Shown here piece by piece: positions 14,123-56,856 of a stretch of 64,000 nt of DNA. The position numbers were made by a program, and so were the translations under genes. Below the pieces are notes generated by a model. It searched no databases. It was not told the origin of the DNA and saw only the letters and a program-made list of their open reading frames with translations. The first letter of the stretch is position 1; every line of letters starts with the position of its first letter. The stretch comes from Camelus ferus (lineage: Eukaryota): positions 58,778,001 through 58,842,000 of the forward strand of contig NC_045696.1 of the NCBI RefSeq assembly GCF_009834535.1, written 5' to 3'.

Positions 14123-14719
14123 GTCTTGCCCTCTCTGTCACCCTCTTAGTCTTGGAATAGGGAGGCTTTCCAAAAAGTAATTCCCAAGAAAGGCTGTACT
14201 TTGGAAAGACTGAGGAGGGGAAGGAGTACTACACACCTAAACACCTCTGGATGTAAAAATGTGAGTAAAAAGTAAGCCCTTAAGCTCTGGAGAGTCTGTT
14301 CTTGGTCATTTCATAGATTACTTTTTTTTTTAAGCTAAAATAATCCTTTAGTAGGCATTTCATAGCTTACTCAGTTTTTTATAAACATTTTTTTTATTGA
14401 GTTATAATCATTTTACAATGTTGTGTCAAATTCCAGTGTAGAGCACAATTTTTCAGTTATACATGAACATACATATATTCATTGTCAAATTTTTTTTTCA
14501 CTGTGAGCTACCACAAGATCCTGCATATATTTCCCTGTGCTATACAGTACAATCTTGTTTATCTATTCTGCATTTTAAAATCCCAGTCTATCCCTTCCCC
14601 CCCCCCGCCACCCCTGGCAACCACAAGCTTGTACTCTATGTCTATGAGTCTGTTTCTGTTTTGTATTTATTTATTTATTTACTTTTTAGCTTCCTCATAT
14701 GAGCGATCTCACATGGCAT

Positions 14720-15052
14720 TTTTCTCTCTCTCTGGCTCACTTCACTCAGAATGACATTCTCCAGTAACATCCATGTTGCTGCAAATGGCGTTATGTTGTC
14801 AGGTTTTGTGGCTGAGTAGTATTCCATTGTATAAATATATCACACCTTCTTTATCCAGTCATCTGTTGATGGACATCTAGGCTGCTTCCATGTCTTGGCT
14901 ATTGTAAATAGTGCTGCTATGAACATTCGGGTGCAGGTGTCATTTTGAAGTAGGGTTCCTTCTGGATATATGCCCAGGAGTGGGATTCCTGGGTCCTATC
15001 ATAAGTCTATTCCTAGTCTTTTGAGGAATCTCCATACTGTCTTCCACAGTGG
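14720..15052 (-). pseudogene. L1 ORF2p C-terminal remnant (downstream of the zinc knuckle only)
   Basis: PLWKTVWRFLKRLGIDL**DPGIPLLGIYPE...MFIAALFTIAKTWKQPRCPSTDDWIKKV*YIYTMEYYSA...FAATWMLLENVILSEVSQ. Confidence 0.9.
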
Positions 15053-15195
15053 CTTTCCTTGTTTCCCTCTCCCACCCTTAATGATTTAGATGTCTTCTTT
15101 TAAAATTTTGTGTTTATCCTATTTGTAATTCATGGTAGTTATCTCCTTTCCAGTTATGAGTTTCTCATTTTTGTAGCATCCTGCTTCTTTTCTAT

Positions 15196-16087
15196 TTAAA
15201 GTAGACCTGTCAATACTCCTTTTAGCGTGGGTTTAGTGTTGCTAAACTCTTTCAGTTTTTGCTTGTCTCTGAAGTTCTTTCTCTCTCCTTCTATTCTAAA
15301 GGATACCCTTGCTGGATTGAATATCCTAGGCTGCATCTTTTCTTCATTCAGGACTTTGAATATATCTTGCCACTCCCTTCTGGCCTAGTGTTTGTGTAGA
15401 GAAATCAGCTGAGAGCCTTATGGGGCTTCCCTTGTAACTCACTCTTTGTTTTTCTCTTGCTGCCTTTAGGATCATTTCTTTATCCTTGACTCTGGCCATC
15501 TTGATGATGATATGTCTTGGTGTGGGTCTGTTTGGGTTCTTCCTGTTTGGGACCCTCTGAGCCTCCTGTACTTGGATATCTGATTCCTTCTTTAGGTTTG
15601 GGAAGTTTTCAGTCATGATTTCTTCAAATACCTTTTCAATCCCCTTTGTTCTTTCTTCCCCTTCTGGAGCCCTTATTATGTGTAGATTGGCATGCTTTAT
15701 ACTATCCTATAGGTCCCTTATATTGTTTTCATTGTTTTTATTTGTTTTTCTCTCAGCTGTTCTGATTGGGTGCTTTCTGTTGTCCTGTCTTCTAGGTCAC
15801 CTATTCATTCCTCTGCATTATCTAGCCTGCTTTGTACAGCCTTTAGGTCAGCTCTCATCTCAGCAAATGAGTTTACTAATTCTACTTGGTTCTTCTTTAT
15901 AGTTTCTATTTCATTTTTGACATACTTTATATCTCTAAACACTATTTCTTTTAGTTCCTTCAGTACTCTGATCAGTCCTTTTTTGAAATCTTGATCTAAG
16001 TAGGCCATCAATGTCTGTTTCCTTGATCGTGCTTTCAGGGGATTTCTCTTGATCTTTTAATTGGGAGTGGTTCCTCTGCTTCTTCAT
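15196..16087 (-). pseudogene. Decayed L1 ORF1p (coiled coil, RRM, CTD)
   Basis: Reads MKKQRNHSQLKDQEKSPE...LDNAEE*IGDLEDR...IMTENFPNLKKE...PTPRHIIIKM...ILKAAREK...PIRLSADFS...ARREWQDIFKVL...TKPTLKGVLTGLL*. Stops at 15805-15807 and 15707-15709. Frameshifts near 15998, 15737 and 15385. Confidence 0.92.
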
Positions 16088-16189
16088 ATTGCTCTTATCT
16101 CTCTGGCACTGTGGCTTAAGGAGTATCAGTTATCTAGTTCTCCTGGAGATGGTGTGCTCTTAATGATTTTTATCGAGAGGTCTTTGTGT

Positions 16190-17416
16190 CTTCGCCCTGT
16201 TTGGCAAACTCAGCTTGCTGTTTCCAGAGGCCCTCTGTTGGTGCCCTCTTCTGTGCTGGTCCCAGTGGCTGTCGGCTAGCAGATTGCGCCCCCTCCCAAC
16301 ACTGGGTCAGGTGCTGAGCTCTTACCCAGTGGGCGGGGGGGGGCGGGTCACTCCCCTTTCTGATGCCGCAGTCAGATGCTGCACTCGGGGGAGGCAGGTG
16401 GGCAGATCGCGCCCCCTCCCAGCACTGTGGTCAGGTGCTGCATTCCTGCCAGGAAGGCGGGTGACCACCCGCCCTCTCCAGGCACCGGTAGCTCCGCCTT
16501 GGGTCGGTGCCCCGAAGGCGGGCTCGGGGAAGACCGCAGAACGGCCCCGCCTCTGCTCAGTGCCAAATCTCAGCTCCTTGTTTGTCTTGGCCACAGGAGT
16601 TCTCTGAGGTGCTAGGGCAGAAAGATCCTATCTGCCTCAGGCTGTAAACAAGTCTCAGTCCTGCCTAGGAGCTGTGGAGCCCCTGGGCGCGGATTCAGGC
16701 CTCGGCCCCACCCCTGCCCGGGCGGGCGCTGCGCACGGGGGAGATAGCGGCTGTGGCTGCGCCCTGCCTCTCTTCTTGTGAGAAGCTGCCAGTAATGGTG
16801 GCACAGGTCTGAGGAGACAAAGGCTACGCCCCCCCCTACCCCAGCACACCAGCCGTGTTGCCTTGCTTTTTTCGCAGTTTATGGGGGACCGAGGTTGTTC
16901 TGCTCTGTATCCCCTCCCAGCCATTGTGCGCAGCCCCCTGCAGTCCCCCGGGGCTGCCTCAGTGCAGCTACCCCCGTCTTCCGCCCAGCCCGGGTCGCCT
17001 GTCCCAGCCCCAGCTGCCAGCTTGCATCTCAGGCTGGGTGTCACGGGGACCCTTTGTGCCTGTTTAACTCAGTTCTGTCGGTCAAGGGGGTGCTTGGGGC
17101 AGATCTGAGCCTCAGAGGCTCCCCCTCTGTTCCGCTGGCCTTTCCGTTGGAGGGGGGAGCCCCAGCGAACGAGCGCCAGTCCTCCTTTGCCGCTCTCTCC
17201 CCGCGGGACCGGTCCCACATTGTTTTGCTTTTTCTTCTTTCTTTTTTCCTACCAGATTTTTGGTGTCTTTGTCTTTTGAAGAGGGCAATGTTCTGTTGGA
17301 GTTCGGCAGGTGCTCTGGTTGGCTGAATAGGTCCGTAGATGTGAGTTTTGGTGTACTTGTGGGAAAGGGTGAGCTGCAAGCGTCCTTCTACTCCGCCATC
17401 TTGCTTCTCCTCCCTA
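16190..17416 (-). promoter_or_regulatory. L1 5'UTR internal promoter, CpG-island-like
   Basis: The most CpG-dense part of the window, with a YY1 motif (CAAGATGGCGG) at about 17393-17403 and several GC boxes. Confidence 0.7.
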
Positions 17417-17474
17417 AGCTTACTCAGTTTTAATTTTGGTTTTTTTGTTTTTGTTTTCCCATTTATAATAAAAC

Positions 17475-17617
17475 TTTATTTTATTGAAGTATAGTTGGTT
17501 AACAATGCGGTAATTTCTGGTATACAGCATAGTGACTCAGTTACAACATATGTATTCCTTTTCATATTCTTTTTCATTATAGCCTATTACAAGGTATTGA
17601 ATATAGTTCCCTGGGCT
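17475..17617 (-). mobile_element. Short 5'-truncated L1 3' end
   Basis: Plus-strand TTTATTGAAGTATAGTTG...TATTGAATATAGTTCCCTG is the reverse complement of the L1 3' end also seen at ~37690-37825. Confidence 0.85.
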
Positions 17618-17633
17618 TAGATGACTTTAAAAA

Positions 17634-27199: not shown

Positions 27200-27710
27200 C
27201 AGTATGTTCACATGAAGATTTGCACGCAAATGTTCACAGCAGTGTTGTTCCTAACAGCAGAAGAGTAAAAACTCAAATGTCTAGCAACTGGTGAATGGAT
27301 AAACAAAACGTGATGTACATCCACACCATGGAACTGTATTGAGCAAAACAAAGGAAAGATACTGGTACACGTTACAACACAGATGAACCTCAAAAACATG
27401 ATGCAGAGTGAAAGAAGCCAAATGTTAACACTACCCACTGTATGATTTCCTTTACATGAAATGTTCAGAAAAGGAAAACCTAGAGACAGAAAGTAGATTG
27501 ATGGTTATCAGGAGCTGGGAATGGAAATGGGGATTAACTTTAAAAGGGCATTCGGGATCATATTGTGGTGACAGAAATGTTCTAAAACTGGATTATGGTG
27601 ATGGTTGCACAACTTGGTAAGTTTACTAAAAAGCATTGACTTTCACACTTAAAATGGGTTAGCTTTCTGGTATGTAAATTAATACCTCCATAAAGTTGTT
27701 TTTAAAAGAA
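27200..27710 (+). mobile_element. L1MB-like 3' fragment
   Basis: AAATGTTCACAGCAG...GAATGGATAAACAAA...GAGACAGAAAGTAGATTGATGGTT...AATGTTCTAAAACTGGATTATGGTGATGGTTGCACAAC. Confidence 0.85.
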
Positions 27711-36282: not shown

Positions 36283-36477
36283 ACAGTCCAGCATGGGAAC
36301 CTCCAGTCACATGTGGCTATTTAAAATTAAATTACATTAAAATTCAGTTCCTCAGTCACTCTAACCTCATTTCAAGGGTTCAGCATGTGTTCATATACAG
36401 CCAGTAGCTACTGTACTGAACAGCACAGATACAGAACACTTCTGCCACTGCCAAAAGTTCTTTTGGACAGCTCTGGG
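36283..36477. mobile_element. hAT-Charlie MITE (MER33/MER3-like)
   Basis: CACATGTGGCTATTTAAAATTAAATTACATTAAAATTCAGTTCCTCAGTCAC...AAAGTTCTTTTGGACAGC. Confidence 0.78.
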
Positions 36478-36516
36478 ATAGAGGGTAATCCACAAGAAAA
36501 ATGTTGGTAGCCAACG

Positions 36517-37835
36517 TGTTTCTATCACCATGTACAAAAATAAACTCAAAATGGATTAAAGGCCTAAACATAAGACTGAATACTATAAAACTCCTAGAGA
36601 AAAACATAGGCAGAACACTCTTTGACATAAATTGCAGCAATACTTTTTTGGATACATCTCCTAGAGTAATGGAAATAAAACCAAAAATAAACAAATAGGG
36701 TTTAATTAAGCTTAAAGGCTTTTGCACAGCAAAGGAAACCACAAACAAAATGAAAAGATAACCTATAGACTGGGAGAAAGTATTTGCAAATGATGCTACC
36801 AACAAGGGATTAATTTCCAAAATACACAAACAGCCCATACAGCTTAATATCAAAAAACAAACAACCCAATCCCAAAATGGGCAGAAGACCTAAATAAACT
36901 TTTCTCCAAAGAAGACATACAGATGGCTGACAAGCACATGAAAAGATACTCAATATTACTAATTATTAGAGAAATGCAAATCAAAACTACAATGAGGTAT
37001 CACCTCACACCAGTCAAATGGTTATCATTAAAAAGTCTGCAAATAACAAATGCTGGAGAGGGTGTGGAGAAAAGAAATCCTCCAACACTGTGGTGGGAAT
37101 GTAAATTGGTGCAGTCACTATGGAAAACAGTACGGAGGTTCCTTAAAAAACTAAAAACAGACTTACCATATGATCTAGCAATCCCATTCCTGGGTATATA
37201 CCATGAGAAAACTTTTAATTCAAAAAGGTAATGCACCCCCAATGCTCATAGTAGCACTAGTTACAACAGCCAAGATGTGGAAGCAACCTAAATGTCCACT
37301 GACAGACGAATGGATAAAGATTTGGTGTAAACACACACACACACACACACACACACAATGGAATATTACTCAGCCACAGAAAAGAAAGAAATAATGCCAT
37401 TTGCAGCAACATGGATGGACCTAGAGATCATTATACTAAGTGAAGTAAGCCAGGCAGAGAAAGACAAATATCATATGACTATCACTTGTAAGTGGAATCT
37501 AAAAAAATGGATACATATGAACTTATTTACAAAACAGAAATAGACTCATAGACATAGAAAACAAACTTACGGTTACCAAAGGGGATAGTGGAGGTGGGGG
37601 AGGTAGGAGAGATAAATTAGGAGTCTGGGATTAACATATACACACTACTATATATAAAACAGACAAACAACAAGGACCTACTGTATAGCATAGGGAACTA
37701 TATTCAATATCTTGTAATCACCTATAATGAAGAAGAATCTGACAAAGAATATATATAACTGAATCACTCTGCTGCACACCTGAAACTAACACAACACTGT
37801 AAATTAACTATATTTCCATAAAAAAATAAGATAAA
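36517..37835 (+). mobile_element. 5'-truncated L1 (ORF2 3' part + 3'UTR), ~1.3 kb, with a (CA)n insert
   Basis: ORF2-like frames PCTKINSKWIKGLNIR..., [16 protein letters not shown]..., [21 protein letters not shown]...[12 protein letters not shown] and MEYYSA...FAATWMDLEIIILSEVSQ, followed by an L1 3'UTR and A-rich tail. Confidence 0.93.
37330..37357. repeat. (CA)n microsatellite inside L1
   Basis: Direct reading. Confidence 0.95.
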
Positions 37836-46714: not shown

Positions 46715-48060
46715 TGTATGGACATATAAACCAATGGAATAGAACTAAGAGTCCAGAAACAAACCCTCATATTTGCAGTCACTTGATTTGCAACAAGCGT
46801 GCCAAGTCAATGGGAAAAATAATTGTCCTTTCAACAAATGGTGCTGGGACAACTGGATATCCACATGCCAAAGAACAGAGCTGGAACACTTTCTTACACT
46901 ATATACAAAAAAATTACTCAAAATGGATCAAAGACCTAAGTGTAAGAGCTAAAACTATAAAACTCCTGGAAGAAAACAGAAGTAAATTTTTGTGACCCTG
47001 GATTAGGCAACAGTTTATTAGATATGACACCAAAAGCACAAGAAAAAAAACTTGGCTTTATTAAAATTAAAAACTTATGTGCTTCGAAAGATACCATCAA
47101 GAAAGTGGAAAAACCCACAGACAGGAAAAAATATCTACAAATACGTAATAAGGAAATTACATACAAAATATATAAAGAACTCCACAAATTCAACAATAAA
47201 AAAACCAAATAATTCAATTTAAAAATGGGCAAAGGATTTGAATAGCCATTTTTTTCCAAGAAAAATATGCAAATAGTCAATAAGCACATGAAAAGGTGCT
47301 CAACATCATTAGGGAAATGCAAATTAAAATCATAATGAGATACACTTCACATCCACTAGGATGGCTATCATTAAAAAGACAGATAAGAACAAGTGTTGGT
47401 GAGGATGTGGAGAAGGTGGAACTTTCATGCACTGCTGATGAGATCAGAAAATGGTACAGCCACTATGGAAAACAGTCTGCTTCAAAATGTTAAATATAGA
47501 ATTACCCTATAACCCAGCAATTCCAATCCTAGAAGTAGGTATACCCAAGAGAAATGAAAACAATATGCCCATACAAAAACTTGCACGTGACTGTCCGTAT
47601 TGGTATTCATATTAGCCAAAAAGTGGAAATATTCAAAATATTCATTCAACAGATGAATGGATAAAATGCGGCATAGCCATACAGTATGACATTAGAAATA
47701 AAACAAATAAAAAGTAATGAAAAATAAATTAAAATAAAGTACTGATACACTCTACAATATTAATGAAACAAAACATTATGCTGAGTGAAGAAGCCAGGTG
47801 CAAAAGACCACATGTTGTATGATTTACTTTATATGCCCAGAGTAGGCAAAATTATAGAGACAAAAAGTAGATCAGTGGTGATCCGGAAGGTTAGGAAGAA
47901 ATGGGGAGTGACTGCTAATCGGTACAGGGTTTCTCTTTGGGGTGATGGAAATGTTCTAAAATTGATCATGGTGATGGTTGCATAACTGTGTAAATATTGA
48001 ACTTTATACTCTAAATGAATGAACTGAATGATATATGAATAAACCTTTTATTTTTAAAAA
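46715..48060 (+). mobile_element. Old L1 (L1MB-like) ORF2 3' part and 3'UTR
   Basis: HINQWNRTKSPETNPH..., SKWIKDLSVRAKTIKLLEEN and IREMQIKIIMRY frames. L1MB-type 3'UTR (GGGTGATGGAAATGTTCTAAAATTG). Confidence 0.88.
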
Positions 48061-56726: not shown

Positions 56727-56856
56727 TTTTTTTTAATTTTGGGGGAGGTAATTAGGTTTTTATTTATTTACTTATTTTAATGGAGGTACTGGGGACTGAA
56801 CCCAGGACCTTGTGCATGAGAAGCACCTGCTCTACCCCGGAGCTATACCCTACCCC
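56727..56856 (-). mobile_element. tRNA-derived camelid SINE (Vic-1-like)
   Basis: Minus strand GGGGTAGGGTATAGCTC...GGTCCTGGGTTCAGTCCCCAGTACCTCCATT...AAATAAATAAA...CCTAATTACCTCCCCC. Same family as 1678-1837. Confidence 0.85.

Follow-up and report, generated by a model that had tools for sequence, protein, structure and literature searches.

The window, a 64,000-nt stretch of Camelus ferus DNA, was found to contain a 3,038-nt L1 insertion on the minus strand which retains both ends of its parent and a full-length ORF1, and from which both the endonuclease (EN) and the reverse transcriptase (RT) of ORF2 are absent. The structure is real and the copy is dead. The layout is that of HAL1 (half-L1), a known and repeatedly evolved class, so the element is at most a new HAL1 member. 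It is possible, if not quite probable, that the element is a dead member of a non-autonomous L1 family of the HAL1 type.

General features of the insertion

The insertion lies between exact 15-nt direct repeats (14364-14378 and 17417-17431, 100% identity), which abut exactly the end of the A tail and the L1 5' start, and the target, as read from the 5' flank, is TT|AAAA. The single insertion of ~3.04 kb with a perfect 15-bp target-site duplication (TSD) and a TT|AAAA site, as claimed in the first-pass annotation, was borne out. The TSD and target motif establish that the element was inserted by target-primed reverse transcription (TPRT). This hallmark, together with the A tail, is shared with HAL1 and does not fix the length of the RNA when it was copied. 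Two separate insertions were considered but rejected, since the whole unit is enclosed by a single TSD pair. The features are as follows, in the order in which they are read on the minus strand:

17462..17617, minus strand: host, 3' end of an earlier L1 copy with 5' truncation (E 2e-7, 68% identity across 167 nt)
17417..17431, minus strand: 5' TSD, 15 nt, at a TT|AAAA-type endonuclease site
16097..17416, minus strand: L1 5'UTR / internal promoter of 1,320 nt, rich in GC and with some CpG decay
17393..17402, minus strand: AAGATGGCGG motif at the 5' start, read in the sequence
15196..16096, minus strand: ORF1, full length but dead (Pfam and alignment to relative P0005)
15055..15195, minus strand: inter-ORF spacer, first ~141 nt (homologous by eye to pig spacers as far as the final base ahead of the join)
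15053..15054, minus strand: deletion junction, 1-2 nt overlap (A or AG), with ~3.7 kb of the parent probably missing
14686..15052, minus strand: ORF2 remnant, last ~120 codons, downstream of the zinc knuckle, with 4 stops and 1 frameshift
14399..14685, minus strand: 3'UTR, with a G-rich tract near 14590-14610 and 69% identity to an older L1 3' end at 37113-37826
14379..14398, minus strand: AATAAA (at 14398) and interrupted A tail
14364..14378, minus strand: 3' TSD, exact 15-nt repeat partner

The element lies within the A-rich tail of the host L1, which corrects the anatomy first given for the locus. A candidate 11-nt TSD with 1 mismatch (near 17619-17629 and 14312-14322) may bound the insertion of the host L1; if so, ~40 nt of non-L1 sequence before the host A run could represent a short 3' transduction.

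5'UTR and ORF1

The ~1.3 kb GC-rich 5'UTR described initially was confirmed at 1,320 nt, with a G+C content of 0.63-0.68 across 16200-17199 and a CpG o/e of 0.46. Two imperfect repeats with a spacing of ~123 nt lie within it at 16254-16461, and no real array was found in the 5'UTR by Tandem Repeats Finder. The AAGATGGCGG motif (17402-17393), a putative YY1 site, is likewise found near the start of the two pig consensus 5' ends examined.

The L1 RRM and C-terminal domains were recognized in ORF1 by Pfam (PF02994, E 1e-26; PF17490, E 1e-18), and 243 of 297 aligned codons (82%) are identical to those of P0005, a relative of 300 aa. Against this relative, three frameshifts (near 15999, 15739, and 15384) and two stops (at 15807 and 15709) were identified, and the first codon (16096) is AAG, the original first ATG having been lost. 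An ORF1 had been placed at 16087-15196; its presence is confirmed by Pfam, whereas its start is in fact 16096, with 16087 being the second ATG, and it is not intact. Both the L1-derived 5'UTR and ORF1 are kept in the insertion, as in HAL1.

Spacer, deletion junction and ORF2 remnant

ORF1 is followed by ~141 nt of spacer (15195-15055) and then by an abrupt change to the end of ORF2, in agreement with the ~140 nt and the jump noted at first pass. The sequence across the join reads ...AAGGAAA G CCACTG..., with the ORF2 side supplying CAG CCA. ORF2 resumes at 15052 with the Pro codon of Q-P-L-W-K, just past the CCHC knuckle. The two sides overlap by 1 nt, or by 2 nt if the camelid parent has AG, as judged from the sequence. 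The lost stretch, computed from pig spacer lengths of 390-529 nt (available part of PMC6501411), would be ~3.7 kb and would extend from the first third of the spacer to just beyond the ORF2 zinc knuckle.

When a 1,261-aa ORF2p (P0160) was compared with the insertion, its sole match was residues 1137-1249, in sense orientation. Residues 1-1136, which include EN, RT and the zinc knuckle, had no match in the insertion, and the claimed absence of these domains, a HAL1 feature, accordingly stands. The remnant amounts to ~120 codons (15052-14686), with 4 stops and 1 frameshift, rather than the ~110 first counted. Inside the insertion no antisense ORF2 pieces and no old tail were found, the one ORF2 match being of camelid type and in sense orientation. 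Each of the 19 camel-type ORF2-tail models starts to align at 15049-15058, and almost every one extends upstream through the CCHC knuckle, which is absent from the element.

By eye, all eight pig spacer homologues track the spacer of the element to the last A before the join; these eight are places located by one motif in the supplement of PMC6501411, not all 51 pig subfamilies. They bear on whether the element was retrocopied from an L1 RNA that had been spliced between a spacer donor and an acceptor at the CAG preceding the Pro codon, as in the spliced integrated retrotransposed elements (SpIREs). The 3' arm does start right after an AG, and human spliced L1 RNAs do retrotranspose, as reported in the portion of PMC5860796 consulted. 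However, GT directly after the join-matching position was seen in none of the eight (0/8, by eye), which are pig homologues and do not include the camelid parent spacer. The pig GT-AAG lies ~9 nt upstream of the join position, where the element has AC-AAG and reads on. In addition, an older L1 copy in the window is without a pyrimidine tract ahead of that AG, and AG makes up 6.9% of the dinucleotides in that copy. Splicing is highly improbable because of the overlap at the join and the lack of a GT donor in the eight pig homologues.

Deletion in place was also considered, in which a full-length L1 inserted and lost 3.7 kb later by DNA break repair. The copy is old enough to have acquired three frameshifts and two stops in ORF1. 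The 45 nt on the left side of the join bear a weak similarity to ORF2 on the left side of its breakpoint, and this could mark misaligned repair. This resemblance (its score was reached by 22 of 1,537 control windows and by 35 of 5,000 shuffles) was given little weight, being post hoc, scored on an older L1 as a stand-in and inclusive of AG by construction. Furthermore, the same G-rich stretch is native to pig spacers, and the join is without long microhomology. This route is considered unlikely.

Camelid L1 ancestry

The best matches to the ORF2 tail are Camelus models (77-88% identity), and a piece of ORF1 is 90% identical, over 64% of its length, to a gene model of Camelus dromedarius; together these support the camelid origin that had been proposed. 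The tail is 80-92% identical to camelid L1 models over 76 residues, with a median identity to 19 models of 85.5% compared with 88% among those models. The element thus resembles camelid L1 (dromedary model KAB1262767.1 and its cluster) in both the ORF2 tail (80-92%) and ORF1 (82% to P0005), but the camelid models continue upstream through the zinc knuckle and the element does not. On these sequence identities, the assignment of its parts to camelid-type L1 is supported. The Repbase name L1-2_Vpa appears as a label in the text available for PMC6726744.

Other repeats and annotation

Older 5'-truncated L1 fragments comprising ORF2 and 3' sequence occur in the window at 36474-37826, 46729-47993, and 27221-27620, all on the plus strand, and are 67-71% identical mutually or to the element. 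Rfam and ARAGORN over the window identified two tRNA-like repeats only, both outside the element. These are found on the minus strand at 1762-1834 and 56781-56852, are 83% alike over 69 nt and were assigned to Thr and Glu by ARAGORN and Rfam; they are probably heads of tRNA-derived SINEs. Among camel gene models, P0058 and P0127 (cylicin-1 and GTF2F2 isoform X1) have L1 ORF1 or ORF2 sequence fused in, which is probably due to annotation read-through into L1 copies.

Search for further copies of the junction

Within the 64-kb window, the junction has one match at ≤3 mismatches, the locus itself. A junction 26-mer had no matches in GTDB contigs, a collection which barely samples camelid DNA. A spacer 20-mer had none in viral contigs, and searches with ORF1p confirmed none of 6 candidates in viral contigs and none of 121 in GTDB. 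Twenty eight metagenome loci containing a spacer 18-mer were attributed to chance and set aside, as none of the 28 is an L1 and their matches to the element around the motif reach 29 nt at most.

Protein searches with the junction peptide gave 49 matches, 1 match, and the best 150 of 5,447 matches, none with the spacer peptide. Of 214 proteins examined, 209 were anchored on the ORF2 tail; the 145 with at least 15 upstream residues, a set with little camelid DNA sampled, all lacked the spacer peptide upstream of the tail (0/145). Gene callers need an open frame and camelid DNA is scarce in the protein collections, so these blanks are weak. No camelid HAL1 was found in the literature searched, and the term "HAL1" does not occur in the main text of a camel repeat survey (PMC8605555).

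Sequencing runs listed for the junction stretch (24, from 16 studies) contain 15-68% of 40 sampled words. The best holds 27/40 words and the identity of the words is not given, so the share is silent on the junction itself. Many of the runs listed have sizes grouped around 2,000 million letters, which may represent totals for contigs. A reading of the word share as a sign of high copy number at low coverage was dropped, as it says nothing about the junction. An assembly artefact, that is, a collapsed or chimeric join within a full-length L1, would fit with no run containing more than 27/40 of the sampled words. However, a low share is expected when contigs drop rare repeat variants, and repeat collapse needs long shared sequence where the overlap here is 1-2 nt; of the explanations weighed, an artefact is the least credible.

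Origin of the element

The HAL1-like layout that was claimed, with both ends and ORF1 kept and ORF2 EN and RT absent, is supported, and the breakpoint, the decay and the camelid L1 ancestry are likewise observed. For a family origin, a camelid L1 would have dropped ~3.7 kb, from the spacer to past the zinc knuckle, with 1-2 nt of overlap at the join. The shortened master would keep the promoter, ORF1 and the 3' end, would be transcribed from the L1 promoter and would make ORF1p. Its poly(A) RNA, already short when copied, would borrow ORF2p in trans from full-length L1s of the same lineage. Insertion of this RNA by TPRT at the TT|AAAA site would give the 15-bp TSD and, elsewhere, sister copies, and the inserted copy would then decay.

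A family origin is consistent with both ends and the TSD being intact though ORF2 residues 1-1136 are gone, and with a 5' break which falls within the spacer, sparing the whole of ORF1 and removing the start of ORF2. A deletion of ~3.7 kb placed randomly in an L1 of ~6.7 kb is estimated, with pig spacers of 390-529 nt, to do both only 15-25% of the time. HAL1s evolved independently several times in mammals (as stated in the section available of PMC5753468), and the rat HAL1 (RNHAL1) is credited with ~7,500 copies in the excerpted text of PMC2241872. Against a family, no second copy of the junction appeared in searches which hardly sample camelid DNA. The vestigial ORF2 tail also shows no clear excess of decay over ordinary camel copies, and nothing therefore points to a long non-coding history of the master.

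Such a break could also have arisen once, during insertion itself. ORF2p acting in cis on a full-length L1 RNA would have copied ~670 nt from the 3' end, jumped into the spacer of either that RNA or another L1 RNA and continued to the 5' end, a HAL1 "birth event" leaving no family. The 3' arm of ~670 nt is of the usual size for a 5'-truncated L1, the median in tumours being 503 bp without inversion (bioRxiv 2024.08.27.596794, in the part available), and human ORF2p template-jumps in vitro (PMC10830420, as excerpted). The 1-2 nt overlap and the similar decay of both arms also fit. However, a jump explains only by chance (the same 15-25% estimate) why the break spared ORF1 and landed in the spacer, and the internal deletions in the tumour cohort of that preprint, in the portion available, are short (median 14.5 bp) and inversion-linked. 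A jump of this kind is rather unlikely, though less so than deletion in place. As a pair, these two one-off routes, acting at or after insertion, are jointly as likely as a family origin, neither side quite reaching an even balance of belief.

A variant of the family origin supposes an undescribed camelid HAL1 lineage in which the junction was kept since the spacer frame, opening at an ATG at 15133, is fused in frame to the last ~120 ORF2 residues. In that case a "mini-ORF2" of ~150 residues would be produced by the master in addition to ORF1p. The frame of this ATG (15133-15131) is indeed in register with the ORF2 tail across the join, but one in three joins would be in frame by chance, stops occur at codons 5 and 16 (and further at 45 and 46) and none of the 145 database proteins carries the fusion. 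This variant is improbable, only marginally less so than splicing.

Comparison with known elements

HAL1 elements, including rat RNHAL1 and pig HAL1_SSc, have been described previously (Smit, 1999; Bao and Jurka, 2010, as cited in the available parts of PMC5753468, PMC13756887, and PMC4161310). They likewise consist of an L1 5'UTR, ORF1 and an L1-type 3' end with ORF2 deleted, measure about 3 kb and bear the hallmarks of TPRT. HAL1_SSc is similar in size to the element, its listed length being 3,016 nt, of which the 5'UTR takes 944 nt and ORF1 906 nt (PMC6501411). In the supplement of that paper, the consensus bearing the label HAL1_SSc (L1A6) has a long ORF2 at its end, at odds with the 3,016 nt of the table. 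HAL1s are multi-copy families, whereas the element is known here from one locus. Unlike HAL1s, it still has ~120 codons of the ORF2 of its own parent, in sense orientation, and its tail is of camelid type.

In Drosophila, the R2 SIDEs (short internally deleted elements) are likewise non-autonomous non-LTR elements in which the 5' and 3' ends of an autonomous parent are joined. They belong to another clade, however, keep no ORF and have been shown to propagate (PMC3414825, in the text available). SpIREs are also internally deleted L1s with both ends and a TSD, but those described arise by splicing inside the 5'UTR or between the 5'UTR and ORF1 at GT-AG, according to the passages available of PMC5860796. 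In the element the loss runs from the spacer to ORF2, and an AG is found at the 3' side, with no donor evident.

If the junction is unique, the element is an ordinary internally deleted dead L1 of little interest. If sister copies exist, it would represent one more independent origin of HAL1. Such a family would have been missed by RT-based camelid repeat surveys, which detect non-LTR elements by their reverse transcriptase, as was done in the camel survey (PMC8605555, section 15). It would also offer a clean breakpoint, and a parent and derivative close enough to date the event and to test for selection on ORF1 in a parasite of L1.
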